64,000 nt of DNA from a virus, in the IMG/VR virus record IMGVR_UViG_3300031539_000009, positions 1 to 64,000 of that record, one strand, 5' to 3'. Made by a program: the position numbers and the translations under genes. The notes under the pieces are model-generated. The model saw only the letters and a program-made list of their open reading frames with translations, was not told where the DNA came from and did not search any database. This document shows, piece by piece, positions 7,252 to 34,148 of the stretch (position 1 is its first letter; the number at the start of each line of letters is the position of its first letter).

Positions 7252-7253
7252 GA

Positions 7254-12174: not shown

Positions 12175-12285
12175 TTCCCTGCATTCTATTTTGCATGTAT
12201 GAATTCAACCTTTTCAACCCCTTATGCATTAGCAACTGCACTCATTTTTTACGCATTTTTGCCTGCAAAATGAATGCACAAATCA
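12169..12285. repeat. TGCA-phased intergenic element, copy B
   Basis: Units at 12180, 12192, 12204, 12213, 12225, 12237, 12252, 12264, 12275. Confidence 0.85.
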
Positions 12286-15200: not shown

Positions 15201-15351
15201 CAACCCCCAATGTGTCGGCCACCACATACATATCTTCCAACAAGCTCACAGCAACGTCCAGCCGGTCCGTCAGCCCGTCCGGGTTGATCGGCTGTGCCAT
15301 TTGAAGTTGATTGCTTGCGTGCAAATCTGAACAAAGTATAAATTTCATCAC
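12289..15351 (-). CDS. Fused Mre11/SbcD nuclease and Rad50/SbcC ATPase
   Basis: SDLH, GDLFD, GNHD, GHFH; NGAGKS, CPEC zinc hook, SGGQ, LLDEVLDGLD, VSHD in one ORF. Confidence 0.92.
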   Translation of the reverse strand: MMKFILCSDLHASNQLQMAQPINPDGLTDRLDVAVSLLEDMYVVADTLGVENIFFLGDLFDRKNVDLVTMKYVLGKLAEMSAKYAHIIFHILPGNHDAFDSAGWHYSVDILKLLWRPNLRVMRDSVPYITGGGGIPVHIYPLPYSSPEKTVQRLTSMKPEGRVNILLAHHSIIGGKIGKWICDDGIDPKYLKQWDAVFSGHFHEPQTIGDNVVYVGSMLPLIFGDSAKRGYMTVDVDKNGVIDFEHYQMDNSPLFLDVELDLGNPAMNLGDYKHRGAYTRVKVVGDKDQIRQMDKDGLTQELREHGVMAHKLDVETKEQDQNRIEIKSGMTASDLVRSYVEDTGVVKGTGMDPVRLIRVGTKCFEGGIASRDTKAGMKVSERARAVRFDTINIKGFASFGSGDNVLQFGKHDLVLISGENRDSTGSDSNGAGKSNLFKALTWCLWGQTVDGMGSNVVNRDPAITSAKVALEFSLDKTKYKVTRFMGKGTKLTLSQGDGKKWDDISGGSIKDTQGRINNLLGMDMLTFRNTVLYGQGDHSKFTDHNTSDADRKAVLKSALRLDDYDYAQEFAKQERNRVQADIINPLANKIQLLQVRMGEVDTDTLKRKVDNFESNRQERIQVIRGDIERIKARTPDRKSNMEALESCEGQIDKITGQKGKRDEFKVEAQKWDDEFADWGGKVARLTSSISISKHAIVDVEEQIKRVSERDECPECGSPSDGTHTKKFIKGLKGKVQEHQKRIEEMEAEATEAKKSARASLEKRDKARESQQKIQDMLDDLPRLERELSGIKQALDRIKQDEKLVEGKVRDIRAVEAETNEFTDMLAAAKSKLAKLTRQQHKAGALMVDAESEAEHYDFWVKGFGNQGLPSYILDVVMPTVNSLSNKYLSILSDGSILVEMSTQSELKSGDKRDKISIEYNVDGVADVIPSGGQLRRISLSIGLALMDILAGREFTSFNIMLLDEVLDGLDRVGKSRVLDLLGQIKGMRETIYVVSHDPDIVELFDHSLTVVKSGGHSMIK

Positions 15352-18452: not shown

Positions 18453-21400
18453 TTAAAAAGCCCGCCCGACATGGACCACGGCCTGTACGATATATGACTG
18501 TTTGTACTTGTCGCTTTTTTGTTTCTCAACTTGCATTATCACAATATCACCAGTGGTCAACTTATCTTGATTTGGCTCATACAAATCGTTGAAGCAGAGC
18601 AACGAACCTACTGCGCCGCCGCCCGGACCCGTCAAGGTCAGAAAAGCCATCATGCCATTCTTGGCCTCATGCCGCTTGCAATCGGTCACCATTCCATATA
18701 TCAACGCCTCAGCCCCGTGTGCTGTTTTGGCCAGCCGCTTGAACGGATTTGCCTTGACCAGTTTTTCACCTTTTTCCTTCCATTCCTCCACCAGCTGATC
18801 CCTTTCAGACGGTCCCAAATGTATGGCATCCCTGGCTTCCCTTTCCCCTTCCGACACCATCAAATCAACAGCAATGCGACTGTAACGCTCCAATGGGTCC
18901 TCAAAAAAGTACATCTCATATGGATTCAGGCCTGACCGCTCTGGCTTTCCTTCCGCCGTCGCCGTCGCAATCTTGTTCTCAACATCGTCCAGATCAGCCA
19001 TGAACTGTACACGCATCGTCTTGGACTTAGCAAACAACGACACCTTCATGGCCACGCACGTCCCGATTCCCTTTTCAATAATGGGCCTGAACTCATCGAA
19101 CTTATCAATGTCCAGCTTAATCCTCCAATGGACATGCGTCTCATCCTGGACGTTGAAATTGCTGTACCTCTTTTTCCAACCAATCCGGTCCTTTTCCGCC
19201 TGATCCGGCTCTGTGGTGTGGAAGTCACCGACCTGGTTGAAGCGGACATCGATGATTTGCCCTCTGATGAACGCATCGCCACCATCCCAAGGCAATTGAT
19301 CCAATGGGCTGAATTTGATGTGCGGACCGAACTGATCCAACAGGTCATCGTACAACTCAACCGGATGCTTGTCCATTGGAAGCGGGCACACATCTATCGA
19401 CATGCGCACCAGCATCTCTGGTGTGAAATCTTCTTCACTGGCCGACTGGGCCAGCACCTTATCAACGCTGTCATATTCGTGTTTGTCGCAGTACTTCAGA
19501 AGTGTCTCGACATTCTCCAAAAAAAACTTGACGTTGGGAATCAAACCGGTGAACGCCCCGGCCTTGACTAACATCTCAACGGACCGCTTGTTCACATATG
19601 ACTTTCCCACCCGCTTCCTGAAATTGCCGAATGAGGTGAACTCGCCATCCTTGTCCCGCTCCAACTCAATTTTTTCGATTCCCTTATTGGTCACCCACTT
19701 GATCTTATTCAAAGCAAATATGATCCGGCTCTTGCTATCTATCCTGAAGTGTTTGTTGCTGTGATTAATGTGGGGTTTGATAATCTCCACCCCCAGCCTT
19801 TCCGCTTCCTGTATAGTCCTGGCCGCTGTTTCTGAATCAGGCTCATGCTTGAGTAAAGCCCACATGAATTCCACAGGATAGTACACTTTGAGCCACATCT
19901 CCCAATAAGCAATGGCCGCATATGCGACTGCGTGCGATTTGTTAAAGCCATATGAACCAAAGAATACAATGGAGTCAAACAGCTTCGCCGCCTTTCCCTT
20001 TTCCATCCCGATCTTGGCCGCCCCCTCCATGAATCGGTCCTTTTCCTTGGTTATGACTTCCACGCCCGCCTTTTTGGCAATATCCTTCCTGAGTGAGTCA
20101 GCCGTTCCAGGCTCATATCCGCCGATCTGCTTAAAAATCTGAATGACCTGCTCCTGGTACACGATGACGCCATATGTCGGCCCGGTAATGGCATCATATG
20201 CTGGGTGTATTTTTTCCCACTTCGCCCCGTTTTTGCGCTCCACATACTTGGTCGCCAGACCGGACCTTGCTGTGCCCGGCCTGTTCAACGCATTCATGGC
20301 GGCCACGTCCTCAAATGAGTCAAATGTAATCGCTTCAGCCAGGTTGAACATCGATGTCGTGTCATACTGGAATATCCCAGCAAACTGTCTGTCTGTGAAC
20401 GATTTGAACACCTTGTCATCGTCCATCGGCATCCCTTCCAGATCAATTTCCTTCCCGTGTCGCCGCTTAATTTCACCCAGACAGTCCCCGACCACGGACA
20501 GGTTGCGCAACCCCAAAACATCCAACTTGAGCAACCCAAAATCTGTGCACCCCCAAAAATCCACTGCTGTACAGGGTGTGACCGCCTTGTCTGTTTTCTG
20601 TACCTCCATCGGAACAATGGTGGACAGTTTCCTGGGTCCAATCACAACCCCGGCTGCGTGGACCCCTTTCTGGCGTGCCTGTCCTTCCAAAGACATCACC
20701 AGTGGCAATATTTCAGGGTGTCTGGCGTTAAACTCCTGGCACACCTTAAACTCTTTGAATGAATCCTGAACGGTCTGGCTGGCCCGCTCATCGCCGGATG
20801 ACCTCTCAACAATGCTGTTGGTGACCTGCGCCACCTCATTCATGTGTATTTTATGGACCCTGGAGACATCCCTCAGACATTGCTTCCCTTTCAATGTTCC
20901 CACGGTCCCGATCAATGAAGTGTTTTCCGCCCCATACCTATCAATCAAATAATCAATGACTTCTTGGCGCCGAACGTCCTCAAAATCCATATCAATATCA
21001 GGCATGTCTATCCGGCCCGGACTCATGAACCTTTCAAACAACAATTCATGCTCCACCGGGTCAACCGATGTGATGCCCAACAAGAATGACACCAAACATC
21101 CCGCCGCCGAACCACGACCAGGACCAACTACCATTTCCTGTTTCCGCACCCACTTGTAAAGATCATGGACAATCAGGAAATATCGCTCAAACTTGCTTCC
21201 CAAAATTGCCCTCATTTCCATTGACACCCGCTCTGAATATATCCTGATGGCATCCTCATAGCTGATGTGACGATTCCTGGCCAGTCGCCTGGCACGCTCT
21301 GGCACGTTGCGCCACGCCCAGCCATCCTTACACAACTGAAATATGTATTGCTTTTCCGTCAATCCGGCTGGCACCTCAACGTCCGGCAGAATACAGGCGA

Positions 21401-22346
21401 ACTTGTCCAGCTTTAAGTCCACATTACAACGCTCAGATAGTTGGACGGAATTGTCCATCATCTCGAACATGTCACCCTTTTCTATCCACGGGTGATATCT
21501 GCGGACTGCCCCCATCATTTCCTTGGGAGTGCGAAACCAAAAATCATGGGTGTCAAATTTGAAACGATTGGGGTCATCTAAGGTCTGTTTGAATTGAAGG
21601 CACATCAGGACTTCTTGCTGCAACCAATCATCCGGCCTGAGATAATGAACATCATTGGTCAGGATGGGCTTGAACCCGAACTGCTTGGCCATTTTCAAGA
21701 TATACTGATTGGACTCATCCTGGCCATCTATTTCGTTGGGCATCACCTCGCCATACACTCGATCAGGCCCAAAAATATCCAACAACTTTTTCAGGTGCCT
21801 GGCCGCTTTCCGGTGATCGCCCTCCAGGAATGGCTTGCTGAGTATTCCGCCAACGCACGCCGTCCCGACCATTATGCCCTCTTGATGCTTTTCCAAAACT
21901 TCCCAATCAACTCTGGGCCTATTGCGATACAAGCCAGTGAGCCAACCTTCCGATGTCAGCTGGAATAGATTGCTCAATCCTGTTTCGTTCATGGCCCAAG
22001 CGCACAAATGCCATGTCTCGCTGATTCCCAATTCCCTTTCCCTGTCCTTCACCCACTTGCGCCGCTGCCCTGAAGGAATGTCTTGCGCCAACGCTTTTTC
22101 CTCTTCAGGCAACGCTGTCTTGCGCCGGTCGCCGGTGACATACAGTTCACAACCATAAACCGGCTTCACGCCCGCCCCTTTGGCTGCCTTGTGGAACCTG
22201 TAAACACCACGCATTGATCCGTGGTCGGTCATCGCCACCCTTTCGTGACCAGCTTCTTTGGCCCGCTCCATAAGATCGGTGACCCGGCCCACACCGTCTA
22301 ACAGGCTGAACTCGGTGTGTAGGTGGGCATGGAAGTGATATGGCAT
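18453..22346 (-). CDS. dnaE: DNA polymerase III alpha subunit
   Basis: HLHTEFSLLDG PHP domain, GRGSAAG, MPDIDMDF, KLDVLGL, YGFNKSH. Confidence 0.96.
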   Translation of the reverse strand: MPYHFHAHLHTEFSLLDGVGRVTDLMERAKEAGHERVAMTDHGSMRGVYRFHKAAKGAGVKPVYGCELYVTGDRRKTALPEEEKALAQDIPSGQRRKWVKDRERELGISETWHLCAWAMNETGLSNLFQLTSEGWLTGLYRNRPRVDWEVLEKHQEGIMVGTACVGGILSKPFLEGDHRKAARHLKKLLDIFGPDRVYGEVMPNEIDGQDESNQYILKMAKQFGFKPILTNDVHYLRPDDWLQQEVLMCLQFKQTLDDPNRFKFDTHDFWFRTPKEMMGAVRRYHPWIEKGDMFEMMDNSVQLSERCNVDLKLDKFACILPDVEVPAGLTEKQYIFQLCKDGWAWRNVPERARRLARNRHISYEDAIRIYSERVSMEMRAILGSKFERYFLIVHDLYKWVRKQEMVVGPGRGSAAGCLVSFLLGITSVDPVEHELLFERFMSPGRIDMPDIDMDFEDVRRQEVIDYLIDRYGAENTSLIGTVGTLKGKQCLRDVSRVHKIHMNEVAQVTNSIVERSSGDERASQTVQDSFKEFKVCQEFNARHPEILPLVMSLEGQARQKGVHAAGVVIGPRKLSTIVPMEVQKTDKAVTPCTAVDFWGCTDFGLLKLDVLGLRNLSVVGDCLGEIKRRHGKEIDLEGMPMDDDKVFKSFTDRQFAGIFQYDTTSMFNLAEAITFDSFEDVAAMNALNRPGTARSGLATKYVERKNGAKWEKIHPAYDAITGPTYGVIVYQEQVIQIFKQIGGYEPGTADSLRKDIAKKAGVEVITKEKDRFMEGAAKIGMEKGKAAKLFDSIVFFGSYGFNKSHAVAYAAIAYWEMWLKVYYPVEFMWALLKHEPDSETAARTIQEAERLGVEIIKPHINHSNKHFRIDSKSRIIFALNKIKWVTNKGIEKIELERDKDGEFTSFGNFRKRVGKSYVNKRSVEMLVKAGAFTGLIPNVKFFLENVETLLKYCDKHEYDSVDKVLAQSASEEDFTPEMLVRMSIDVCPLPMDKHPVELYDDLLDQFGPHIKFSPLDQLPWDGGDAFIRGQIIDVRFNQVGDFHTTEPDQAEKDRIGWKKRYSNFNVQDETHVHWRIKLDIDKFDEFRPIIEKGIGTCVAMKVSLFAKSKTMRVQFMADLDDVENKIATATAEGKPERSGLNPYEMYFFEDPLERYSRIAVDLMVSEGEREARDAIHLGPSERDQLVEEWKEKGEKLVKANPFKRLAKTAHGAEALIYGMVTDCKRHEAKNGMMAFLTLTGPGGGAVGSLLCFNDLYEPNQDKLTTGDIVIMQVEKQKSDKYKQSYIVQAVVHVGRAF

Positions 22347-22349
22347 TTT

Positions 22350-22832
22350 TTACCTCTCATCATTGGGCAATCTCGGAAAGTATTTCAAAACGTCCTTGAA
22401 CGCTTTCAGACTATGGCCAAACAACTTAACTGATTGCCCCAGTTTCTGGGCTGCTTGGACGTCAAATGGGGTGAACAACGCATCCCTGATTTCAGTGTCC
22501 GTGAACCCATTTTCTGCATGTTTGTTTATATGGAATCCGATGACCTCTTTCAACTCAGCTGGATACGCACCATGAAGAATGTATATCAAATAGTTGATCC
22601 CCTCAGCCGTCCTGGCCAGGCGTGATACCAGCTTCCCCTTGTGCGGACCGAACTTCAACCTGGCATCCGGCAGACCGCCATCGTGCGGCAGAATAACTGT
22701 GTGCTGGTCGTGAAGATCAGCCTCAACCTGCGTTGCTTCCTGTTCCGCTTCCGTCTCAATCGTGGGCGCAATTCCATCCTGGGAATTCCCGCCCCTTTGA
22801 AACATTTCCCTGATTTTGTCTTTTGTGCTCAT
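22350..22832 (-). CDS. Hypothetical protein with FGxHKG...YL motif (DUF3820/ExoX C-terminal-like)
   Basis: LKFGPHKGKLV...NYLIYI. Confidence 0.55.
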   Translation of the reverse strand: MSTKDKIREMFQRGGNSQDGIAPTIETEAEQEATQVEADLHDQHTVILPHDGGLPDARLKFGPHKGKLVSRLARTAEGINYLIYILHGAYPAELKEVIGFHINKHAENGFTDTEIRDALFTPFDVQAAQKLGQSVKLFGHSLKAFKDVLKYFPRLPNDER

Positions 22833-23391
22833 CAATGAACCTCTTGGCAACCTCCAAAGTCACTGTTGGCCCATACCCGCTGGTGTCAATGCTCAACTTT
22901 GGAATTCGATTAACCATGCCACATGTCCGATCTAATTGGGTGGCCACATGCCACCAATCTTTTTCATCCTCCAACGGGAATTTTTCATGCTTGCAACGCT
23001 TCTTTGAATCCTCATAGCAACAGCCCAAATACAAGTACACGACCGGACCGCCGCCCTGCAAAAGACTTTCCTGCCAAACATCCATCCACGACTTTATCCG
23101 TGGATCATTTTCATCAAATTCACCGTACAACGAACCATAAGCAATCGCTGAGGGCAAGGACCGATCCAAAATCACATTCCTTCCAACCTGCCCCAGCACC
23201 TCTGCCACGAGAACATCCTCAATGTAACTATTCACAGGAATGCCAATTTGGCGCATCCCTTCCACAATCTCGTTGAAATTCCGTCCGGCCCGCCGGAATG
23301 ATCGGAACACAGGCCAACGTGTCCGCCTTTCCAGCTGCTCGCAAAGACTTGTCTTGCCCGATCCATTGATGCCCTCAGCAATTACTATCAT
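22756..23391 (-). CDS. P-loop nucleoside monophosphate kinase (thymidylate kinase-like)
   Basis: IAEGINGSGKTS, ILDRSLPSAIAYG. Confidence 0.8.
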   Translation of the reverse strand: MIVIAEGINGSGKTSLCEQLERRTRWPVFRSFRRAGRNFNEIVEGMRQIGIPVNSYIEDVLVAEVLGQVGRNVILDRSLPSAIAYGSLYGEFDENDPRIKSWMDVWQESLLQGGGPVVYLYLGCCYEDSKKRCKHEKFPLEDEKDWWHVATQLDRTCGMVNRIPKLSIDTSGYGPTVTLEVAKRFIDEHKRQNQGNVSKGREFPGWNCAHD

Positions 23392-23404
23392 GGCCGCTTC
23401 CCCC

Positions 23405-24592
23405 TTATTTCAGGAAGCTGTTGTGGGTGTCCAGGATTGCTTTCAGGCCATCCTGCAACTCCAACGGTGATATGTTGAGCGGTGGGGTGATCTTGATCTG
23501 TCCCTTTGGTCTGAACGTGGCGATGAGCAGACCGAACTCCCTGGCCCGCTCTGCGAACTGATAACCATCATATCCAAAGCTGTCGAACCTTGGCAAAATT
23601 CCCCAGTGGACTCCCACGCCATCGATGGTCTCAATCCAATCCTGGGCTGTGAAAAAATCCTCCATGATTTTGCTTGTGTCTCGAATGTGCTGCAGCCCGC
23701 CGTCCTCAAGCCAATCCAATAAAATCAAATTGGCCTCACAAACAAACGGACCGCCGCCGAATGTGGTGTAATGCGTCCTGGGCGCCAACGTCCCGGAACA
23801 CTTGGGAGTGGCCAAACAAGCTGACATCGGATAACCCAACGCAATTCCTTTTCCCAAGGTCAAAACATCAGGTTGAATCCCAAAATATTCCCCGGCTGTG
23901 TACGTCCCGGTCCTGCCCATCCCCACCTGGACCTCATCGAATATGAGCAAGATGTCATGGGTGTCGCAGAATTCACGGACCTCTTTCAACAGCCCTTCCC
24001 GATGCAGACGAACCTCATTGTTGCCCGATATGGGCGACATGAAAATGGCAGCCACGTCACCAGGCACCAGGTCGCTCAATTCCTTGAAGAATGTGAACCC
24101 GGTTGGCATCGGTCCAAATCCTTCTTTGTGATATGGTGAATCCCTGGAATCCGTCGCCGCCAAAGACCAACCGGTGCGACCTGCAAACTGCCCCTCAATC
24201 GAAGCAATTATGCACTTGTCATTCCCTTTGTCGTGCTGATATTTGCGGGCCAGCTTGATGGCTGTCTCGTTGGCTTCCGTCCCGGAATTAGCAAAAAACA
24301 CCTTGTCCATTCCCGTGACTCGGCACAACCTTTCTGCGCACTCCCATCTGGTAGGGTGCGGCAGCATGTCTGCCAGCTGGTGCGGCTTTCCGGCTTCAAG
24401 GAAATTGGTCAGCCGATTTATGACCATCTGATTGCCATACCCCAACGATATTGTCCCGACATCAGCGCACATGTCAATGAATTCATGGCCATCCTCTGTG
24501 TATAGTTTGGCCCCTTCCCCGCCACCGATCACCAATGGCAACCGATTTATGGTGGGCATCAGGTGCCCGTCCATTTGCCTTTCATCCATCAT
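23405..24592 (-). CDS. PLP-dependent class-III aminotransferase (ArgD/OAT fold, divergent)
   Basis: NSGTEANE, FDEVQVGMGRTG, PDVLTLGKG. Confidence 0.92.
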   Translation of the reverse strand: MMDERQMDGHLMPTINRLPLVIGGGEGAKLYTEDGHEFIDMCADVGTISLGYGNQMVINRLTNFLEAGKPHQLADMLPHPTRWECAERLCRVTGMDKVFFANSGTEANETAIKLARKYQHDKGNDKCIIASIEGQFAGRTGWSLAATDSRDSPYHKEGFGPMPTGFTFFKELSDLVPGDVAAIFMSPISGNNEVRLHREGLLKEVREFCDTHDILLIFDEVQVGMGRTGTYTAGEYFGIQPDVLTLGKGIALGYPMSACLATPKCSGTLAPRTHYTTFGGGPFVCEANLILLDWLEDGGLQHIRDTSKIMEDFFTAQDWIETIDGVGVHWGILPRFDSFGYDGYQFAERAREFGLLIATFRPKGQIKITPPLNISPLELQDGLKAILDTHNSFLK

Positions 24593-25536
24593 CTCACTTT
24601 CACCCCCGTCCAAGGATCACGCCCCCAATATTCACGATATTCACCCACACGCTGCTTGCCCATGGGGTTGTAATCCCGCTCCACTTCAGCCGGATCAAGA
24701 CCGGCCACCAATTTGGCGTACATCGGGCAAACTGGCAAAGCATCCTCACCCGTCACACGCCTTTCATTTTCGTGCTCGAATTTGCAGCCGCCGAACTCTT
24801 CATTGCAGATGCACGGTGGCGTGGCCATTTCTGAGAATATCGGGTGAACCTTGGTGGCGCACTCTTTGATCATCCCCCGGATAACCGGCCCCCACAACCC
24901 CAGCTGAAGTATCCAACACGACCTTTTGCCCACGATATGGAGCATGCTGTTGACGTTCATCGTCCAACTGATCCGGTGCTGCGCCCCCAACGGAATCAGG
25001 TCACGGGCATCTTCCATAGGCACGCCCGCTTCCACCAGCCTGTTGTACATATCCTGAATCCTCTTCATGGTGTCGCCATATTCACGATACAGGTCAGGCC
25101 TGGTCTTGCCTAACTGGCGGATGGTGTTGGCCTTGCGATACATTCCCTGGTCTGCGAACGTCCCCATGTTCTGAATCCGCATCGACTGGCTCCAATAGCT
25201 GGAACTGACCAAATCAGGAATGAGGTCAACTCCGATGCGGTCATCATGCTTGTGCCCGACTCGGTGACGGACCGCTTGCTCACGCCAACTGACGCTCACG
25301 CCCTCCATCATGAAGTTGAAATAAATGGACTCACTGACCGGAATGTTCTGGGCCACGACCTTCCTGAACAATTCCAGCAACCCATCGTCACCCATGGGGT
25401 CATCCGGGTCACGCTTCCCGGCCTTCACTTCATCCACCGTCAACAGCGGATTTTCAGACTTGCTTGCCCACCAGATTATGTACAGTGTCTCCAGCGGGTC
25501 ATTTGTGTTACTGATCAATCTCACCCTTGGTTCCAT
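24589..25536 (-). CDS. thyX: Flavin-dependent thymidylate synthase (ThyX)-like protein, atypical
   Basis: EQAVRHR, SQSMR, GVPMEDARDLIP, TMN...KRSC. Confidence 0.8.
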   Translation of the reverse strand: MEPRVRLISNTNDPLETLYIIWWASKSENPLLTVDEVKAGKRDPDDPMGDDGLLELFRKVVAQNIPVSESIYFNFMMEGVSVSWREQAVRHRVGHKHDDRIGVDLIPDLVSSSYWSQSMRIQNMGTFADQGMYRKANTIRQLGKTRPDLYREYGDTMKRIQDMYNRLVEAGVPMEDARDLIPLGAQHRISWTMNVNSMLHIVGKRSCWILQLGLWGPVIRGMIKECATKVHPIFSEMATPPCICNEEFGGCKFEHENERRVTGEDALPVCPMYAKLVAGLDPAEVERDYNPMGKQRVGEYREYWGRDPWTGVKVR

Positions 25537-25557
25537 TTTGATACCTCCATTTGATTA

Positions 25558-26451
25558 TTACAGGCCAAGCCTGTTCAAGACTTCGCCCCAGTTTGTGACC
25601 GGCTCCAAACAATCGTGCGGTGCTAAATTGTCTGAAATCGGACTCTTGAAATACAACACCTTTATTCCGTCCCCGGCCAAGTCCAACGCATGCTTTGGGT
25701 CATCCTCGATGAATCCCACGACCTTAGCAGGGTGGATGTTTTCCCAGACTGCCCCGGACTTGTCCCTGGACCACAGCACCTGATCCGGCTTGATCCCATG
25801 TTTGTCCAACCAGAAGTGGGTGTCTGTGGCAATCCTGCGCACTTTCCAATATGGCCTGGCCGTTATCACCACCAACTTGTTTCCTGCCTCTTTGATGGCT
25901 CGGAGTGCTCCAACCGCCCCGTCAATCAGCCCTGTTTCTCTGAATCGCCCCTCTTGATAAAATGCCATCACAGCCACTTCCCGATCTGCCTGGGACAACT
26001 CTTTGTATCCTTTTCCGGCCCGTCCCAAACAAAACATGTCAAATTGGGCAAAAAAATCGGCCACCACTCCATCCAGGTCAGTGACCACAACCGGTGTCGA
26101 TTCCTTCAACTCCATCAATTCAGCTTGCCAACGCTGATCGACCAGGTTTGACTTCTCAAAAAATGCCATCAAGAATTGCTTGTGGGTGATCCCTATGGCC
26201 TGGGCAATCGCCATGGTGTATTTGAACACGTCTGCGCACTGGTCCAAGGCATTCCCATCGATGTCCGGGCACGCCTTCAATTGATGGTGTTTCGGTATCA
26301 ATTCCCGCTTCAATTCAGTGACCTCTTCAAACAGGCCCAAAAGCAGGTCGGATAGCAGCCTGTGCCGCTCTGCTTCCGTCATGGAATCCGGGTTGATCCC
26401 TAACTTTTTTTGTTGCTCCGCTTGCCTTGCCCAAACTTTACCAAATTCCAT
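25558..26451 (-). CDS. All-alpha NTP pyrophosphatase (dUTPase/MazG-like) fused to HAD 5'(3')-nucleotidase-like domain
   Basis: EEVTEL...ADVFKY...EKS..R; DLDGVVAD, ITAR, IEDD. Confidence 0.8.
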   Translation of the reverse strand: MEFGKVWARQAEQQKKLGINPDSMTEAERHRLLSDLLLGLFEEVTELKRELIPKHHQLKACPDIDGNALDQCADVFKYTMAIAQAIGITHKQFLMAFFEKSNLVDQRWQAELMELKESTPVVVTDLDGVVADFFAQFDMFCLGRAGKGYKELSQADREVAVMAFYQEGRFRETGLIDGAVGALRAIKEAGNKLVVITARPYWKVRRIATDTHFWLDKHGIKPDQVLWSRDKSGAVWENIHPAKVVGFIEDDPKHALDLAGDGIKVLYFKSPISDNLAPHDCLEPVTNWGEVLNRLGL

Positions 26452-27394
26452 CACACCACCTTCCGACCTTTTCTGCCACAACGTCTGTTGTTTCCCTTGA
26501 GTCCCAAGCAGCATATCTGCCAATGGGAATCACGCCTTCAGGATATTCCAGCCCCTCATCGCAACCGATGATATGACCCTTGATCCTTCCCTGTTTACTT
26601 ATTCTCATTCCAATGCCAAGGACATGAATCACATCTTTGGCAACCGCTTCCGACTGGTCACTGTCGTCAACCCCATGAGGTTGTGGCACTTCAGCCCAAA
26701 ACGATCTTTGTTGCAAGTTGTAGCTGATCCTGGACACCACTTTCTGCGCTGGTGTGTAAATGTAATCCGGCCCGGCCCACTTCTGATTCCCATTCCACGT
26801 CACCTCATACAAGGCAATATTCCCGTTGCGCAGATCAGGAAAGTCAAGACCGCCGATGGCGGCAAAAACGCTGGCGTGAGCCGATGTAAATAACATGTCA
26901 TAATTGAAATTGCCAGATTTTGTTTTTATGGCATGCTCTGTGTGATCGACTTCCACAACCATGTCGGTACACAACCTGACCCCTTCAAGTGCTGCCTTGC
27001 TCAATTCTGATGGATTTATAACCATAGACTTGGAATGGTCTTTGCCAGGATCATTCATACACTTGGCAGTCCAGCCATCTAATGTCCCCCTGGTCTTGGC
27101 ATAGTGCATCCGTTGAATCTTCTCAGCACGGTCCCGGACCCGGCCCATCATTTCTGGATATGGCAATATTTTCCCGGCCCAATATATTCCGCCGTGAATT
27201 TCCTTGAAATCAACATTGACTCCGTGATGGCACAAAGTTGCCAGGAAGTGCCTGGACCAATGAAAGTATTTCAGCCCGCCTTTGAAAAAATCGCCGGTGT
27301 CAGGACCGATGGCCGTGACCTGGTGTCCGAACCTCTTCAAAACCAATGATGCCACCTGGCCACTCACACCCGTCCCGATTATTACGCAATTCAT
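26438..27394 (-). CDS. FAD-dependent oxidoreductase/mutase-like flavoprotein
   Basis: N-terminal IIGTGVSG; C-terminal IGRYAAW. Confidence 0.75.
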   Translation of the reverse strand: MNCVIIGTGVSGQVASLVLKRFGHQVTAIGPDTGDFFKGGLKYFHWSRHFLATLCHHGVNVDFKEIHGGIYWAGKILPYPEMMGRVRDRAEKIQRMHYAKTRGTLDGWTAKCMNDPGKDHSKSMVINPSELSKAALEGVRLCTDMVVEVDHTEHAIKTKSGNFNYDMLFTSAHASVFAAIGGLDFPDLRNGNIALYEVTWNGNQKWAGPDYIYTPAQKVVSRISYNLQQRSFWAEVPQPHGVDDSDQSEAVAKDVIHVLGIGMRISKQGRIKGHIIGCDEGLEYPEGVIPIGRYAAWDSRETTDVVAEKVGRWCDGIW

Positions 27395-27397
27395 GTG

Positions 27398-27510
27398 TGC
27401 TTTCCTTGCATTCTATTTTGCATGTATGAATTCAACCTTTTCAAACCCTTATGCACTAACAACTGCATTCATTTTTTGCGCATTTTTGAATGCATTCCTT
27501 ACTGCAAAAA
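27398..27510. repeat. TGCA-phased intergenic element, copy C
   Basis: Units at 27407, 27419, 27431, 27440, 27452, 27464, 27479, 27491, 27503. Confidence 0.85.
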
Positions 27511-27519: not shown

Positions 27520-27563
27520 AAAAAGGGCCAGCACCCTGGTGTTGATCCTGGATGCTGGCCCTT
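27520..27563 (-). terminator. Rho-independent terminator
   Basis: AAGGGCCAGCA...TGCTGGCCCTT followed by a T run on minus. Confidence 0.8.
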
Positions 27564-27587: not shown

Positions 27588-28643
27588 TTACTTTTTGCCC
27601 TTTTTCTTGGCCGCCGGTTTGGCCGCCGGTTTGGCCGCCGGTTTGGCCGCCGGTTTGGCTTCCGCTTTGGCCGCCGGTTTGGCTTTGGCCGCCGGTTTGG
27701 CTTTGGCCGCCGGTTTGGCCGCCGCCTTTTTCACCGGTGGTGTCGGTGAATCGACCATGCTGATGTCGATGGATTTGGCCTTGACCATAGCAGCGATGTC
27801 GTTGGCCAGCTTTTCCTCATCCTTGGCCTCCAGGTCAATGACAGCGTGGGTGAACCAGCCATCCTTCCATTCCTTCTGGTTCCATGACTTCTTGGGCTGC
27901 CCGGCAACCTGAACGTCCATCTTGTCCATCCTGGTTTTGGGCCTGAAAGCGCAAATGGTCCGGTCCCTTCCCTTGGGCGTTTTGAAGTACAGGCTGCAAT
28001 ACCCGGAAGGCAGCAAACGATCATGCAAATACAGCTGCCCCGCCTCAGCCTCATCCTTGGACGGTTTGACCTCGGTGCCCATCGAATTGGCAATGATTCC
28101 GGCCATGGCATGAATCCTGGGCATCATCACTTCCATCCGCTCTTGTCGCACGTTTTTCTTGGGTGGCTCAGGTTCAGCTTCCCCGGCCTCATCGCCGTCG
28201 CCGGAATCCTCGGTGGCCTCATCGCCGTCGCCGGAATCCTCGGCATCACCTTCCCCGGCCTCATCGCCGTCGCCGGAATCCTCGGTGGCCTCATCGGTGG
28301 CACCCTCTGCTGCCTCAGTTTCCTCAGTGGTGTCCTCGGTGGCATCCGATTCCTCGGTGGCATCCGTGGCATCCTCGGTGTCTTCTTCAACGCTTTCCGG
28401 CTCATCCTCGGTGGTGCCTTCCAGAATTGCCTTGCCCTTTTTCACGACCTCAGACAAATCCTGCTCGCCTACCCAATCGGGCAGCTGCGCATCAGACACG
28501 CCATCGGACAGGGCCACCGCTTTGACGGCCATGCAGTTGTCACGGAATCCGCACGGCTTTTCATCGGTCGCCGGATTGCCATCACATTCGTCACCAACCT
28601 CATGCATCCCTGCGCAAGCTGGCACTTTTTTCTCATCACTCAT
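27588..28643 (-). CDS. Protein with Cys module, acidic repeat linker and histone H1/AlgP-like KPAA tail
   Basis: GGAGG RBS; translation. Confidence 0.8.
   Translation of the reverse strand: MSDEKKVPACAGMHEVGDECDGNPATDEKPCGFRDNCMAVKAVALSDGVSDAQLPDWVGEQDLSEVVKKGKAILEGTTEDEPESVEEDTEDATDATEESDATEDTTEETEAAEGATDEATEDSGDGDEAGEGDAEDSGDGDEATEDSGDGDEAGEAEPEPPKKNVRQERMEVMMPRIHAMAGIIANSMGTEVKPSKDEAEAGQLYLHDRLLPSGYCSLYFKTPKGRDRTICAFRPKTRMDKMDVQVAGQPKKSWNQKEWKDGWFTHAVIDLEAKDEEKLANDIAAMVKAKSIDISMVDSPTPPVKKAAAKPAAKAKPAAKAKPAAKAEAKPAAKPAAKPAAKPAAKKKGKK
27609..27726. repeat. Coding tandem repeats (12 and 18 bp; KPAA/KPAAKA)
   Basis: TTGGCCGCCGGT iterated. Confidence 0.9.
28183..28296. repeat. Coding repeats (EDSGDGDEA x3)
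   Basis: GGCCTCATCGCCGTCGCCGGAATCCTCGG three times. Confidence 0.9.
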
Positions 28644-28712: not shown

Positions 28713-29411
28713 TTATTTGTTAAGCTGGATCACATCGTTGACCACCCCCCTGATTTTTATCAAAGACCAATTCACCTGATTCACAGTTAGCCCAAGCAAA
28801 TTGGCTATTTCGACATTGCTGGTAAAATCCGGGTCAGGCGGTGTCACCTTGGCCATGAACACTTTACCTTCCCAGCCCCCAAGCCTGTAAAGCACTTGCA
28901 ATCTGAGCAGGGCTGTGATTTGATCTTCTTTGCTCCACTCATATGCCTGATCCGGGTTTGGCGTGGCATTCTCAATATACTCGCACAACACAGGGTCATC
29001 CAACATAGAACAATATGAACCTCTTGACCCCCTGACGTCACTTGTGGTGTCCGCCTTTTCAAGAATCACCTGCTCATTGTATGATGGAAGCTGCGGCCAC
29101 GCCTTGTATTCCCACTCGCCGCTTTCATCATTTTGAAGCCATCCGTGTAACATCCGCTTTTGGGCCATTTCCTTCCCCAGCACTCCCTGGAGATGTCTCC
29201 AAATCACATTCCACGTGTACGTGGACACCTGGGACTTTTCCGCATCATACCTGCTGAGCGACTTCCATGCCGCAATCAGTCCCTCTTGTACCAAATCTTC
29301 AAAACCCAATATGGCTCCGACTCCACGATGATTCCATGCGTGTTTCCTTGCGCCCCGTCTTATGACCCTGTAATGCTCTTCAAACAACGCATCTGCTTCC
29401 ACTTTTGCCAT
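28713..29411 (-). CDS. Phage RNA polymerase sigma factor (sigma70 family)
   Basis: FEDLVQEGLIAAWKSLSRYDAEK..STY region 2; SNVEIANLLGLT region 4 HTH. Confidence 0.85.
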   Translation of the reverse strand: MAKVEADALFEEHYRVIRRGARKHAWNHRGVGAILGFEDLVQEGLIAAWKSLSRYDAEKSQVSTYTWNVIWRHLQGVLGKEMAQKRMLHGWLQNDESGEWEYKAWPQLPSYNEQVILEKADTTSDVRGSRGSYCSMLDDPVLCEYIENATPNPDQAYEWSKEDQITALLRLQVLYRLGGWEGKVFMAKVTPPDPDFTSNVEIANLLGLTVNQVNWSLIKIRGVVNDVIQLNK

Positions 29412-29430
29412 ATTCATTTCCTCCATTTGA

Positions 29431-30132
29431 TTATTTGTTATTTTGGTGGCCGCTGGCGTAATTGTCGGCAGCTTCCCGTATTTTTGCAAACATGGAATCT
29501 GTTATGGTCGGCCAGTGCTTCCCGGCCGCAACTCTCAAACTTCCGATGTCAACAAACTCGCCACGCTTCTGGGCCATTTGGCATTCCTTTACCATCTCCC
29601 CAAACACCTTAGATGGTCGGTGCGCTTGGCAAGCAAAATAGAATTCGCACAACCCAGAATCGCACCCCGGACCGCCGCCCACGTCAGATGCTTCCTGTGA
29701 GAACTCGCCAAAACACTTTGGCTTCATGTCTTGATCCTTGACGTGTTCCGCCCACCCCAAAGCAGCCTGGAACACCTTGGTGATGTCTGGTGAATCCTTG
29801 AACATATCCGCCTTGTCCACCAGCCACATTAGATAGTCAGGCCGGTGAAGGGCCAACCACTTCACGGTCGCAAATTGATGCTTCCCAAACTTGAATTCCA
29901 TGTCGTGAATCGACACCGTTTGGGCCTGGACATTCACATCAGTTTTTCCACCTTCCCGGAATTTGAATTTGCGCTTCCACCTGACCAATGTCGTCTGGGC
30001 GACAACACCGATGATTACACCGGTCAAAACTGCCATCGTGGCAGACATGGTCCCCTCAAATATTCCTTCCCGGACCTTTCCGCCCGCTTCTTGCTGTTGT
30101 AGCATTTTCCTGATGTCATCTATTGAAGGCAT
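29431..30132 (-). CDS. Hypothetical protein with FGKH...YLMWL motif and Cys module
   Basis: Translation; GAGGGG RBS. Confidence 0.65.
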   Translation of the reverse strand: MPSIDDIRKMLQQQEAGGKVREGIFEGTMSATMAVLTGVIIGVVAQTTLVRWKRKFKFREGGKTDVNVQAQTVSIHDMEFKFGKHQFATVKWLALHRPDYLMWLVDKADMFKDSPDITKVFQAALGWAEHVKDQDMKPKCFGEFSQEASDVGGGPGCDSGLCEFYFACQAHRPSKVFGEMVKECQMAQKRGEFVDIGSLRVAAGKHWPTITDSMFAKIREAADNYASGHQNNK

Positions 30133-30597: not shown

Positions 30598-32634
30598 TTA
30601 GGCCATGAGGTATTTTATGATCATCTTGAAAAGCTTGGCCGGAAGATCACCCACGCTGTTGACCACGTCCCAGTCAGGGTAAAAATTCCGCACGTGATCG
30701 GTCTGAATTCCCAGCCCATAAACCTCGATGCCCGCATCAGATATTTCCTTGACCACGTCCCTGGTGGCCTGATACTGCTTGTAATTGTCCCCAATGCTGA
30801 CGTTGGGCTTTCCGTCGCTGAGGACTATCATGATCTTGCGGTGCTGGGGTTGAGCCGCCAGCCGCTTTGCCGTGTGCATGATCGCTTCTGAATCAACGTT
30901 GCAGCCGTTGGTGTCCATCATCGCAATCCTGGTCTTCACAGTGGCATTGAACTTTTCCCCGAACGCCTTGTGGGTGTAGTGGGTGATCCCAACAAATCTG
31001 TTGTAATATTTCATTTCCTCTTTGGGCTCATCCCACGCACTATATCCGGCCCGATAAGTGTGATGTCCGCAAATCTCGAAAGGAATGTTCAGGCCATTCA
31101 ACGCTTCCGCAATCGCTATCATCCCGACCTTGGCGTGTCCAATCCTGTTATCACGACCGCTCATGGACCCGCTCTGGTCAACCAGGATGCTCACGGCCAC
31201 GTCCAACTTCTGTCCTGGCATCGTCTTGGTGAACACTCTTTTGTTTCCGGTCTTGGTGCTGTAAAGTGTGGAAGGATCAATTTGACCATTTTCCTGGTCG
31301 CCCACCCGGACCGCCTGAGCCTTGACCTTGAGCAGCGTGGTGAGTCTGGCCTTGAGTGCTCCGGTGGCCTTTCCCGCTTCCGTTTTGAGTCTGCTGTAGT
31401 GGTCCAGGGCTGCGCTGTCTGATGAGGTGTGGGTGCGAACGTCCCACTTGTCCCGGTCCAAAACCTTGGGTGAGGGGATGTGATCGTTGCTGCGCTTGGC
31501 CAACTCCATCGCCTTGGTCTTCAGTTCATCTTTGATCTTCTGCTTGAGATCGGTCTCAGTGGGCTTGGGCTGCTCTTTTTCCGCTTGCTCCAAGATGTCC
31601 AGTGCTTCCTGAGTGGCCTGGGGCATCCCATTCCCGCTGGCACCGCTCTCATCGCTGTTGGGATTTGAGGTGAAATCTTCATCGGTCCCCTTCCCCTTGC
31701 CGCTTCCGTCCTGGTCGCCGCCCATATCATCGCCATCGTGCTCTGCGGACAATCCGGCATCAACACCCTGGTCGCCGTCCTGCTCCTGCTCGGTGTCCTG
31801 CTCGGTGTCCTGGTCGCCGTCCTGGTCGCCGTCCTGGTCCTGGTCGCCGTCCTGGTCCGCTTCCCCTTTGCCGTCCTGGTCCTGGTCGCCGTCCTGGTCC
31901 TGGTCGCCGTCCTGGTCCTGGTCGCCGTCCTGGCCTTGTTCGTCTTGCTCGGTGTTTCCCTGTTCCTTGTCGCCCTGCTCCTGGTCGCCGCTTCCCTGAT
32001 TCTGCCCCAACTCATCCTTGGCATCACTCAGTCTGCCCAAGATGTCAGTGACCAGCTGGTCAACGTCCGCCGGTGCCTCAACGGTTTTGGCCCGCTCTAT
32101 TTCCGGCTGAATTTTGTCCAAGATCAGGTTGTATGACTCAGGAAGCCAGGAAGTGGATCTGCCGGTGGCCCGGAAGGAAAGCCCAATGGCGATGATGTAG
32201 TTGGGGTTGGCCTGTCCTGGATTGGCGCTTAATTCTTTGACCAAATCGCTGGTGAGCCTATCATTCATGGTGTCCAGGTTGGTGGCCACTCCCGGATAAC
32301 GTGCGCTGAGGCTGCGCTCTATTCTGGTGTCCTCGATGGCGTTGAAAAACACTTTGTATTTGGGGGTGGCCGCTCTCATGTAGTCTAATGGGGTGCGCTG
32401 TCCCTGGGCTTTCCAAATTTCCTCTTGCTCGATGTGGCCCCACTCGTGATCCAACAGACCTTCCATGACCGCCTGATCCGCCCCTTTGAACTTGTCTGCG
32501 TTGGCAGGAAGGTAGATGGTGGCCCCGTCAGTGGCGCAATTCAGCGTCTGGGTGTTGACGTGGACCGTGGCCCGCTTGCTGAACGTCCGGGCGATTTTTT
32601 CCCACTTGCTTTCCATGGTTCTTTTTGCTTTCAT
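30598..32634 (-). CDS. vWA-domain protein (CobT-like) with HExxH N-domain and acidic linker
   Basis: DHEWGH, NAIEDTRIE, DQSGSM MIDAS, VLSDGKP. Confidence 0.88.
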   Translation of the reverse strand: MKAKRTMESKWEKIARTFSKRATVHVNTQTLNCATDGATIYLPANADKFKGADQAVMEGLLDHEWGHIEQEEIWKAQGQRTPLDYMRAATPKYKVFFNAIEDTRIERSLSARYPGVATNLDTMNDRLTSDLVKELSANPGQANPNYIIAIGLSFRATGRSTSWLPESYNLILDKIQPEIERAKTVEAPADVDQLVTDILGRLSDAKDELGQNQGSGDQEQGDKEQGNTEQDEQGQDGDQDQDGDQDQDGDQDQDGKGEADQDGDQDQDGDQDGDQDTEQDTEQEQDGDQGVDAGLSAEHDGDDMGGDQDGSGKGKGTDEDFTSNPNSDESGASGNGMPQATQEALDILEQAEKEQPKPTETDLKQKIKDELKTKAMELAKRSNDHIPSPKVLDRDKWDVRTHTSSDSAALDHYSRLKTEAGKATGALKARLTTLLKVKAQAVRVGDQENGQIDPSTLYSTKTGNKRVFTKTMPGQKLDVAVSILVDQSGSMSGRDNRIGHAKVGMIAIAEALNGLNIPFEICGHHTYRAGYSAWDEPKEEMKYYNRFVGITHYTHKAFGEKFNATVKTRIAMMDTNGCNVDSEAIMHTAKRLAAQPQHRKIMIVLSDGKPNVSIGDNYKQYQATRDVVKEISDAGIEVYGLGIQTDHVRNFYPDWDVVNSVGDLPAKLFKMIIKYLMA
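31768..31935. repeat. Coding tandem repeats (DGDQ/DGDQDQ)
   Basis: CCTGGTCGCCGT(CCTGGT) iterated. Confidence 0.9.
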
Positions 32635-32674
32635 TTTCGTGTCCCCTTTTGTGTTTTTTCCGGCCATGTTTAAT

Positions 32675-32703
32675 ATCATAGCTGATCTTGAATGAAAAGG
32701 CAA
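32675..32703 (-). promoter_or_regulatory. Early promoter copy 3 (TTGCCT-N17-TATGAT), in cassette repeat ~32660-32830
   Basis: Same spacer and upstream blocks as copies 1 and 2. Confidence 0.85.
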
Positions 32704-32891
32704 GAAAAAAAACACCCAAGGTCCAAACTTTTTTTACAATATCCATAAATCCAACAAGTTACAAGACAACTTTTTTTTGGTGTAGCCCGGTCTTTTAATA
32801 GGCCAAAACGTCGAAAGGACCAAAAACCACTTAACTTGTTGATTTTACTTAACATTTTCAATTCCCCATAAAATCAAGGACTTAGGGTGCT

Positions 32892-34070
32892 TTAGCACCC
32901 CATGATCCTCTGGATAACTCCATCCACGAACATCGCATCATCCTTGGACATCCGGTCCAAGATGGTGATCCTGGCGGCCAGGCGGATGTTGTTCAGCTTG
33001 ATAGCTTTCCCGGCCCACTCGATCAGTCTGCGGGTTGAGCAGGTGCAATAACACTGCTCTTGTTCAAATGCTCCCCGAATGGCCTGGGCAACTTCAACCA
33101 TCTTCTGGGCCATGCTATGATCGGCCCCGGTCTTGGACTTGACAATTTTGATCTCAATGGACTTTTCAACATAATCGGCCTTGAGGACCACTCCGAACCT
33201 GTCCAGATATGCTTCATTGAGGACGTTGGTGCCGGTGTACAGGCCGGTGTCGTCGCCCCTTCCGATGGTGTTTGCGGTGGCCACAACCCGGAAATTGGGG
33301 TGTGGTTCTATGACTTCACCGTTGTTCCCGGTGAGAGTGAGCTTGCCGCCACGCTCCAGGACCGCCTGAAGGACAAAAAGGATATGGGGTTGAGCAGCGT
33401 CCATCTCGTCAAGCAACAGCCAATATCCTTTGCGCATCGCTTCCGGCAGCACGCCATCCTTCCAGACCACAACGCTGTTTCCATTCTCATCCACGTCCAA
33501 CACTTTTTCGCCGGTGAAATCAGCTGCCCGGATGTCGCCGTTGAGATTGACTCTGCGGACCGGCTGGTTGAGAATGCTGGCCAACTCCAGGAAAGCAGCC
33601 GACTTGCCGCAGCCCGTGGGTCCATGAACCAGCGTGTTGTCGCCCTCTTCAATTCCAACCGCCAAGACCGTGAAAACATCCATGTCAAGCTGATAATTTT
33701 CATCGTGGTCCGGGATGTATTTTTTGTCCGCTTCTGTTACATCCTTTCTGACGTACAGGCTGGCCGGTCCGATCTGAAGTGGTGCGTCTGGGTTGAATCC
33801 GTTGTGATCGCCGTTGGCGCCGTCCTGAACTTCTGGCTGCTGAATAAGGTCGGTGGCGACCTTGGTGCGCTTGACACCCTTTTGGGCCTGGCTGACCCGC
33901 TGGCTTGCGTATTCTGATATGGTTGGTTCACCCGGATGCCTGAGGTTGTACTCGGCAACGTCGATTCCGTGGGCTGATTTAAGATGTACGCTGAGTTGGT
34001 GGTAATAACGTCCGCACTCTTTGCACTCAATTTTCACATTACCATTCTTGTCGATTTGTTTGAAGCTCAT
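32892..34070 (-). CDS. MoxR/CbbQ/CobS-type AAA+ ATPase with N-terminal C2H2-like zinc finger
   Basis: GPTGCGKS, LLLDEMD, ATANT, AYLDRF; CKEC...H...H. Confidence 0.9.
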   Translation of the reverse strand: MSFKQIDKNGNVKIECKECGRYYHQLSVHLKSAHGIDVAEYNLRHPGEPTISEYASQRVSQAQKGVKRTKVATDLIQQPEVQDGANGDHNGFNPDAPLQIGPASLYVRKDVTEADKKYIPDHDENYQLDMDVFTVLAVGIEEGDNTLVHGPTGCGKSAAFLELASILNQPVRRVNLNGDIRAADFTGEKVLDVDENGNSVVVWKDGVLPEAMRKGYWLLLDEMDAAQPHILFVLQAVLERGGKLTLTGNNGEVIEPHPNFRVVATANTIGRGDDTGLYTGTNVLNEAYLDRFGVVLKADYVEKSIEIKIVKSKTGADHSMAQKMVEVAQAIRGAFEQEQCYCTCSTRRLIEWAGKAIKLNNIRLAARITILDRMSKDDAMFVDGVIQRIMGC

Positions 34071-34119
34071 TTCGCTTCCCACTTTTGATTTGTATTTGGT
34101 TTTTTCGACCATGTATACA

Positions 34120-34148
34120 AGTATAGCTGATCTTGAATGGAAAGGCAA
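34120..34148 (-). promoter_or_regulatory. Early promoter copy 4 (TTGCCT-N17-TATACT), in cassette repeat ~34100-34298
   Basis: Same core as copy 1. Confidence 0.9.

Follow-up and report, generated by a model that had tools for sequence, protein, structure and literature searches.

An operon of seven closely packed minus-strand genes in a soil phage, with small or no gaps between them, raises the question of whether the phage makes a modified pyrimidine nucleotide ahead of replication or supplies itself with ordinary thymidylate by unusual means. The operon lies in a stretch of 64,000 nucleotides (here, the window), taken from the start of a virus record in IMG/VR (IMGVR_UViG_3300031539_000009) that is 82 kb long and rated 79% complete. 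Its genes encode a flavin adenine dinucleotide (FAD)-type flavoprotein, a fusion of a MazG-like pyrophosphohydrolase with a HAD-type deoxyribonucleotidase, an atypical ThyX, a class III pyridoxal-phosphate (PLP) aminotransferase, a P-loop kinase, a small conserved protein, and a DnaE-type DNA polymerase. These identities, and the placing of all seven genes, had been given in a first-pass annotation made from the sequence alone, and they were upheld by open reading frame positions and by Pfam and PHROG searches. The present analysis establishes the identities and folds of the gene products, their conserved catalytic residues, and a tight, clade-specific linkage among them. We suggest, tentatively, that the operon serves a nucleotide-level route to an amine-bearing pyrimidine.

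Linkage of five enzymes in uncultured phages

A profile of each protein family was run on fetched IMG/VR loci to obtain linkage counts. The flavoprotein, the fusion, ThyX, the transaminase, and the kinase stand side by side in 28 IMG/VR contigs, which represent roughly 20 distinct phages after near-duplicates are taken into account, and DnaE follows the five-enzyme set wherever the contig extends far enough. The phages carrying this module are about 100 to 116 kb in size; five records of 104 to 116 kb are rated 100% complete, three of them with terminal repeats. Identity to the window proteins is mostly about 41 to 63% for ThyX (86% in one contig) and about 27 to 32% for the flavoprotein. The transaminase gene may precede or follow the ThyX gene among the relatives, and extra genes are sometimes inserted. 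Such divergence and shuffling of gene order indicate that the association has been kept by selection and not by recent common descent alone. The linkage of the five enzymes is far beyond chance. The first-pass annotation, whose reading would fall if the genes were unlinked in related phages, had called for a search of viral databases for their co-occurrence, and this co-occurrence was found.

The phage that carries the operon is uncultured, comes from soil, and is known from metagenome assemblies alone. A sequencing-run search listed six soil metagenome runs, and no RNA run, as containing the window stretch; four soil runs of 2019 contain the stretch or at least half of it. No GenBank phage matched the whole operon by megablast or the flavoprotein by tblastn, so that the flavoprotein family was not found in any of them. 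For ThyX, DnaE, the aminotransferase, and the HAD protein, GenBank phages yielded only distant relatives (at most 34% identity), and nothing there is closer than 26% identity to the ThyX clade. Scanning 185,579 GTDB species-representative genomes (one per prokaryotic species) with a pattern taken from the ThyX-clade alignment confirmed no relative. Full-text literature searches found no paper describing the ThyX-transaminase-flavoprotein module and none combining ThyX, aminotransferase, phage, and hypermodified bases.

An atypical ThyX clade confined to viruses

The window ThyX passes the Pfam model Thy1 (PF02511) with 69 bits, and both the Thy1 domain and its fold are present. However, it falls below the level of an equivalog, scoring 56 with TIGR02170 against a cut-off of 87.9. 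In canonical ThyX, the RHR motif and the serine of the signature are about 7 residues apart (RHR-x7/8-S), whereas 25 residues separate RHR (residues 90 to 92) from S118-x-R120 here. A MAFFT alignment with canonical-type viral ThyX shows about 18 extra residues exactly at this point, so that the signature motif is interrupted. The insert is conserved across 53 members of the family and, in the structural model, coincides with the sole low-confidence stretch (residues 94 to 116). In addition, Ile replaces Tyr after SxR, the AQxEIR segment reads LQLGLW, and a Cys-rich extension of about 100 residues follows at the C terminus. Four Cys residues are invariant in the 53 members (C207, C242, C251, and C270), the last three of them within the extension. 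The first-pass description of this ThyX as atypical is thus borne out by the insert and by the TIGR02170 score. Canonical enzymes, such as Thermotoga maritima TM0449 and Mycobacterium tuberculosis ThyX, have neither the insert nor the Cys-rich extension, and the clade described here is found only in viruses. It comprises more than 400 proteins, often encoded on contigs of about 100 kb.

An HMMER alignment with T. maritima ThyX equates RHR with R78-H79-R80, R178 with R147, and R205 with R174. The nucleotide-binding arginines of the T. maritima enzyme (R78, R80, R90, R147, and R174) are retained: R90, R120, R178, and R205 are invariant in the 53 members, and R92 is nearly so. The invariant set also includes R85-E-Q87, H91, W115-S-Q-S-M-R120, R188, and Q211. 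Because the arginines of the deoxyuridylate (dUMP) site are kept while the signature carries an insert, the nucleotide site looks intact, and the catalytic loop and its surroundings look rebuilt.

The atypical ThyX is the sole ThyA- or ThyX-family gene in the five complete relatives, and it is likewise the sole thymidylate-synthase-type gene of two phages from other groups whose records are nearly complete. A search for ThyA homologs (PF00303) gave no match in the window's record, nor in the five complete relatives and three records from other phage groups. Since no ThyA-type hydroxymethylase was found, the operon does not represent the known hypermodification route based on 5-hydroxymethyl-deoxyuridine (5-hmdU), in agreement with the first-pass annotation.

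A transaminase clade confined to the module

The aminotransferase matches PF00202 with 226 bits and has the class III fold, including the PLP lysine. Among solved structures, it is nearest to acetylornithine (the best, at 8.9e-57), succinylornithine, ornithine, and putrescine transaminases. It is nevertheless not an ArgD, judging by family scores and motifs: it reaches 267 bits with the ArgD family TIGR00707, whose cut-off is 410, and the Glu of the QGE motif is replaced, as had been supposed in the first-pass annotation. The PLP residues D226, K255, and T284 are invariant in the clade, as is R146. The Glu of EPxQGEGG has given way to Asn (His in a few) in every one of the 22 clade members, so that the motif reads GNN or GHH. 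In ornithine and γ-aminobutyrate transaminases, this Glu gates the carboxylate-binding Arg.

All viral proteins that match the clade profile with at least 364 bits are encoded next to an atypical ThyX, whereas all those with at most 313 bits, which are generic class III enzymes and include some from giant viruses, occur without the module. The aminotransferase clade is therefore confined to this module.

A small flavoprotein with a mutase-like fold

The flavoprotein has no Pfam family of its own and shows only a subthreshold match to a GxGxxG-type model. Its structure was predicted with high confidence (predicted local distance difference test score of 94.7, from an alignment of 56 sequences), and Foldseek places it in the superfamily of amine oxidases, UDP-galactopyranose mutase (UGM), protoporphyrinogen oxidase, and renalase. 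The best match, in overall fold, is UGM, a flavoenzyme that binds a uridine nucleotide. The GLF signature of Pfam was matched neither by the flavoprotein nor by the 56 family members, and the Amino_oxidase model was not above threshold for the window protein. At 318 residues, the protein is smaller than UGM and the amine oxidases (370 to 510 residues), with which it shares 13 to 15% identity. Many Arg, Lys, and His residues are conserved in the family.

A word-indexed homolog search returned 3 relatives of the flavoprotein, and an exhaustive profile search was required to reveal the wider family: 161 clusters at an E value of at most 1e-30 among 1.8 billion representatives, nearly all of about 320 residues. 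In the ESM Atlas, the nearest clusters are labeled viral. The family is large and confined to viruses. A locus scan with a distant member (P0272) found nothing. A locus with a distant flavoprotein-like gene beside a canonical-type ThyX (L052) was considered as a variant of the module and set aside as too weak, the intervening 411-amino-acid gene having no family and no similarity to the transaminase of the module.

Enzymes predicted to clear, phosphorylate, and polymerize nucleotides

In its C-terminal half, the fusion belongs to the NT5C-type HAD phosphatases (32 bits; cut-off, 24.8). A profile of 20 orthologs matches the cytosolic and mitochondrial 5'(3')-deoxyribonucleotidases, the nearest solved relatives, at about 1e-7; these enzymes prefer dUMP and thymidylate (dTMP). 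The N-terminal 100 residues match MazG-like pyrophosphohydrolases, including YpjD and dCTP pyrophosphatase 1, with E values of 2e-4 to 0.7. The motifs of both parts (EE..E and D..K of the MazG-like part; DxD, T, K, and ED of the HAD part) are invariant or nearly so. The true start of the fusion is probably the ATG at about 26451.

The kinase, which shows a P-loop and a DR motif, is assigned to PHROG 761 (thymidylate kinase; 3e-19); in Pfam it stays below threshold (25.2 bits against a cut-off of 27), and its sole solved relative is a deoxynucleoside kinase (E value of 0.018). DnaE is full length, with PHP, alpha, finger, and HHH domains. The dCMP deaminase that the first-pass annotation had noted elsewhere in the window is present and is a likely supplier of dUMP. 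The DUF1599-like gene cited alongside it was not recovered; no DUF1599 match was found anywhere in the 82-kb record.

DnaE is 1,297 residues long here and 1,570 to 1,588 residues long in several relatives (L003, 13092-17804; L006, 11829-16589; L008, 14570-19336). In the tblastn alignment, the first segment stops near residue 797, a break that hints at an intein or an inserted domain in those relatives. An FGxHKGK-type motif, resembling the C terminus of exonuclease X, occurs in two window proteins, namely, the small protein of the operon and the product of 29431-30132 (minus strand). Many relatives keep one of these FGxHKGK proteins, its gene lying between those for the kinase and DnaE.

A candidate route to an amine-bearing deoxyuridylate

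Our preferred explanation, which we hold at somewhat less than even confidence, is that the operon encodes a pre-replicative route, working on the nucleotide pool, to an amine-bearing, C5-modified deoxyuridylate that feeds the phage's DnaE. We infer each substrate and product, the order of the steps, and the modification of virion DNA itself. In this route, dCMP deaminase would provide dUMP. The rebuilt ThyX would bind it and place a one-carbon unit on C5 through flavin N5, as in the ThyX mechanism summarized in PMC8989533, and the product released would not be the plain methyl compound. The flavoprotein and the omega-type transaminase would convert the C5 substituent, or a carbonyl or imine derived from it, to a primary amine, the simplest candidate being 5-aminomethyl-dUMP. 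Pathways in which an oxidase is followed by a class III transaminase are known for aminoglycosides and nucleoside antibiotics. The dTMP-kinase-like enzyme would then form the diphosphate and the host nucleoside diphosphate kinase the triphosphate, the fusion would remove the competing canonical nucleotide (thymidine triphosphate [dTTP] to dTMP to thymidine), and DnaE would incorporate the modified nucleotide. In a variant that is equally compatible with the anatomy of the operon, an amine would trap the exocyclic methylene, and the flavoprotein would then cleave a C-N bond; PaMx11 gp47 cleaves a C-N bond on DNA (PMC8989533). 5-Aminomethyl-deoxyuridine is a known intermediate in thymidine hypermodification (PMC8989533, PMC5889632). 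The observations in favor of the route are the linkage of the five enzymes with DnaE, a transaminase clade that is specific to the module and unlike ArgD, a ThyX that keeps its arginines but carries an insert, the conserved motifs of the fusion and its kinship to 5'(3')-deoxyribonucleotidases, a virus-only flavoprotein whose best fold match binds a uridine nucleotide, the lack of any other ThyA- or ThyX-family gene in five complete relatives, and the position of this ThyX clade next to the polymerase in PolA phages as well.

There are two kinds of precedent for a change of product or substrate in such synthases. (i) PolB, the UMP/dUMP C5-methylase of polyoxin biosynthesis (PDB 4p5a/4p5b), which our sequence search also matched, is a ThyX-family enzyme with a changed substrate, although it is no closer to the atypical ThyX than ordinary ThyX is. 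It is bacterial and still a methylase. We know of no transaminase or flavoprotein partner of PolB. (ii) Phage homologs of ThyA have changed product repeatedly (PMC13326640).

A bolder version, in which the thymine of the phage is replaced wholly or largely by an amine-bearing C5 pyrimidine (for example, 5-aminomethyluracil) made entirely at the nucleotide stage, appears doubtful.

Relation to known phage modification systems

In the phage routes of pyrimidine modification known to us, either a ThyA-family enzyme or one that works on DNA places the carbon or oxygen at C5. The post-replicative hypermodification of thymidine (5-aminomethyl-deoxyuridine [5-NmdU] and its N-acetyl form [5-AcNmdU] in PaMx11, and the systems of M6, ViI, and PhiW-14; PMC8989533, PMC5889632) resembles the proposed route in placing an amine on the C5 methyl carbon of thymine and in employing a flavoprotein and PLP enzymes. 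It starts, however, with a ThyA-family dUMP hydroxymethylase and continues on DNA (PMC5889632, PMC8989533, PMC13458397), with a DNA kinase and an amino-acid:DNA transferase, whereas the operon has no ThyA homolog. Pfam and PHROG searches of the operon proteins, to which the scan was confined, gave no match to a 5-hmdU DNA kinase or to an amino-acid:DNA transferase of the aGPT-Pplase type. The PLP enzyme of the hypermodification routes is a decarboxylase, whereas that of the operon is a class III transaminase. Unlike those routes, the operon includes an NTP pyrophosphatase, a nucleotidase, and a nucleoside monophosphate kinase, which point to the nucleotide pool.

The pre-replicative base replacements (hydroxymethylcytosine in T4, hydroxymethyluracil in SPO1, dZ made with PurZ, and deoxyuridine [dU] in PBS1; PMC12697855, PMC13326640) follow the same logic as the operon: they pair a nucleotide synthase with a means of removing the canonical counterpart and add a dedicated kinase and a phage-encoded polymerase. 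Judging by gene presence and conserved catalytic motifs, the operon contains the corresponding set, with a putative hydrolase for the canonical nucleotide, a kinase, and a polymerase beside a predicted nucleotide synthase. Its protein families are different, in that a ThyX fold (not ThyA or PurA) is combined with a transaminase and a UGM-like flavoprotein, none of which is known from base-replacement modules.

Weighing the route against ordinary thymidylate supply and other explanations

Several observations count against the proposed route. ThyX, dTMP kinase, MazG, and dCMP deaminase are also to be expected in an ordinary dTTP-supply operon. The atypical ThyX clade, with its insert and Cys residues, also occurs in smaller phages, directly upstream of PolA (one such record, of 49 kb, is 94% complete). 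In these phages, no transaminase, flavoprotein, fusion, or kinase was found near ThyX, and the flavoprotein family is absent from the entire records; the clade thus does not need the transaminase or the flavoprotein. One complete 101-kb phage has ThyX, the transaminase, and the kinase but no member of the flavoprotein family. Pbunaviruses group ThyX, a kinase/phosphatase, and a DnaE-like polymerase; in Pseudomonas phage Epa14, genes for ThyX, a hypothetical protein, a polynucleotide kinase/phosphatase, an exonuclease, and the polymerase stand in a row, ThyX, kinase, and phosphatase likewise lying upstream of a DnaE-type polymerase. Pbunaviruses are not known to carry modified DNA. Their ThyX shares three of the Cys residues, lacks the RHR insert, and is about 25% identical to the atypical ThyX; they have no transaminase, and no flavoprotein of this family was found in any GenBank phage.

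The chemistry of the flavoprotein is a further point of this kind. The first-pass annotation had proposed C5 hydroxymethylation, oxidation by the flavoprotein to an aldehyde, and transamination. We found no direct support for this series; the flavoprotein is closest to UGM and amine oxidases, not to alcohol oxidases, and its modeled fold is better suited to C-N oxidation or flavin-adduct chemistry than to the oxidation of an alcohol. The exact step order of that proposal is thus just one of several possibilities.

Restriction-type palindromes are very strongly avoided in positions 1 to 64000 of the window, in observed versus expected counts: CGCG (0 found, 126 expected), TCCGGA (0 and 30), CCCGGG (0 and 14), AGATCT (0 and 11), and AACGTT (1 and 13). 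CGATCG, TTCGAA, AGCGCT, and GTCGAC are also absent, and GCCGGC and CGGCCG are strongly depleted. This signature may point to host restriction-modification systems. Since T-containing sites are among those avoided, T positions in the phage DNA are probably not fully shielded. A small modification (hydroxymethyluracil or aminomethyluracil) would not block many restriction enzymes anyway.

These observations bear most directly on an explanation in which the operon supplies ordinary thymidylate and the DNA is canonical. The divergent ThyX would be a dTMP synthase, the kinase would give the diphosphate, the fusion would serve house-cleaning or pool balancing, and the flavoprotein and transaminase would be indirect helpers of ThyX (upkeep of flavin or NAD(P)H) or auxiliary metabolic genes. 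We rate this explanation as a serious rival, though less likely than not. It is favored by the conserved dUMP-contacting arginines, RHR, and SxR of ThyX; by the standing of this ThyX as the only thymidylate-synthase-type gene in the five complete relatives and the two nearly complete phages of other groups; by the occurrence of the clade without the transaminase or flavoprotein; by the Pbunavirus arrangement; and by the avoidance of restriction sites, T-containing ones included. It sits poorly with the insert in the catalytic signature, the changed positions that canonical ThyX conserves, and the score below the TIGR02170 cut-off. Moreover, the fusion of a deoxynucleotidase with an NTP pyrophosphatase would reverse the dTTP synthesis served by its own operon, and a clade-specific transaminase that always adjoins ThyX hardly looks like a metabolic gene that strayed in.

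Alternatively, the DNA may be modified without the transaminase or flavoprotein acting on the nucleotide. These two enzymes would instead produce or interconvert an amine donor (a polyamine, a diamino acid, or an ornithine-type compound) that is joined to C5 at the nucleotide stage or after replication, with the ThyX-like enzyme making a reactive or hydroxymethylated dUMP. The transaminase is nearest to acetylornithine, ornithine, putrescine, and diaminobutyrate transaminases, and the flavoprotein belongs to the amine-oxidase superfamily. Thymines bearing polyamines, for which donor supply matters, are known (putrescinyl-T, PMC8989533; diaminopropane-modified dapT, PMC13458397), and trapping of the exocyclic methylene by an amine is discussed in PMC8989533. 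We nonetheless consider this explanation improbable, given that no operon protein matched an amino-acid:DNA transferase or a DNA kinase in Pfam or PHROG and that the module is devoid of a decarboxylase.

A further possibility, which we regard as very unlikely, is that the target of the module is the sugar or that its product is a small molecule kept out of phage DNA. The fusion would strip nucleotides to nucleosides, the flavoprotein and transaminase would oxidize and aminate them as in the transamination of uridine-5'-aldehyde in nucleoside antibiotic pathways, and the kinase would rephosphorylate them. In favor of this, the kinase resembles deoxynucleoside kinases no less than dTMP kinases, the product of the HAD domain would be a free nucleoside, and the flavoprotein resembles a nucleotide-sugar enzyme, but the ThyX-like enzyme would be left without a role, no glycosyl- or nucleotidyltransferase was found among the operon proteins by Pfam or PHROG, and the module always lies beside a replicative polymerase.

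Gene neighborhoods of the PolA phages

In three of the PolA loci (L033, L039, and L048), an HD 5'-deoxynucleotidase is encoded near ThyX, and L033 and L048 also have a nucleoside-deoxyribosyltransferase-like gene. By analogy, these neighbors resemble the nucleotide-clearing company typical of base-replacing phages; an HD dTMP phosphatase has been described in a phage with dU-containing DNA (PMC12697855). L033, from a 49-kb phage, further encodes a UDG-family protein and a radical-SAM/SPASM protein; the gene for the latter (6778-7800) precedes those for the atypical ThyX and PolA by about 0.2 kb, and its product could be a different tailoring enzyme for the same core. In L039, a second Thy1-family paralog (5742-6650) lies about 1.3 kb upstream of the atypical ThyX, beside the HD 5'-deoxynucleotidase. 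It was considered as a canonical synthase and rejected; it is aberrant, with SESHQ in place of SxR.

Operon layout and flanking elements

The coordinates of the operon genes and associated features are given in Table 1. Both elements that the first-pass annotation had placed before the operon, a terminator and a TGCA-rich element, were found. The terminator-like hairpin closes the upstream gene (27588-28643, minus strand), and a weak promoter-like site (27444-27415) lies inside the TGCA-rich element.

Table 1. Features of the operon and its surroundings in the 64,000-nucleotide window
Feature	Position	Strand	Evidence or remark
Intrinsic-terminator-like hairpin	~27520-27560	-	GC-rich inverted repeat then TTTTT, read directly
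TGCA-rich element, three TGCA-N8-TGCA pairs	27407-27506	.	~100 bp just upstream of the first gene of the operon
Flavoprotein, FAD-type, 318 aa	26438-27394	-	Subthreshold GxGxxG Pfam match; UGM/amine-oxidase-like fold
MazG-like/HAD 5'(3')-deoxyribonucleotidase fusion	25558-26523	-	NT5C domain, 32 bits; profile matches
Atypical ThyX	24589-25536	-	Thy1, 69 bits
Class III (omega-type, ArgD-like) PLP aminotransferase	23405-24613	-	PF00202, 226 bits
P-loop dTMP-kinase/deoxynucleoside-kinase-like kinase	22756-23391	-	PHROG 761 at 3e-19
Small conserved protein, FGxHKGK motif	22350-22850	-	No family; between kinase and DnaE
DnaE-type DNA polymerase III alpha	18453-22346	-	Four DnaE domains
dCMP deaminase	6745-7374	-	Unlinked to the operon

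TGCA-N8-TGCA pairs also occur at 12180-12240, 35563-35617, and 38130-38145, upstream of other replication genes. TGCA as such has half of its expected frequency in the window, and the pairs number 8 against 3.1 expected, clustering in intergenic gaps before replication and nucleotide operons. They are probably promoter or regulator sites of the phage and perhaps sites for the phage sigma factor encoded at 28713-29489. Upstream of the module, most relatives retain genes for a CobT-like VWA protein and a CobS/MoxR-like AAA+ protein (30598-34148, minus strand in the window), together with one for a sigma-70-type factor. At 12289-15351 (minus strand), a single protein of 1,020 residues joins an SbcD-type metallophosphoesterase to an SbcC/Rad50-type ATPase.

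Implications for phage nucleotide metabolism

A route built on ThyX and a transaminase would, if true, mean that pre-replicative base replacement was invented a second time, independently, and it would add three uncharacterized, virus-only enzyme clades to nucleotide biochemistry. If thymine is replaced, the ThyX of the module would be the first of its family in a virus to have a new product, the transaminase would be the first to act on a substituent of a nucleotide base, and the flavoprotein would be a new, small UGM-like enzyme. Such a route might yield a positively charged base, of value for making DNA that resists restriction and CRISPR and for the enzymatic synthesis of amine-functionalized DNA. 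Should the operon instead serve ordinary dTTP supply, it would still mark out a ThyX clade that is both large and divergent and in which the signature motif departs from the textbook rule. Soil viromes contain the module widely, and it may bear on how the DNA of soil phages behaves in sequencing and in host defense.

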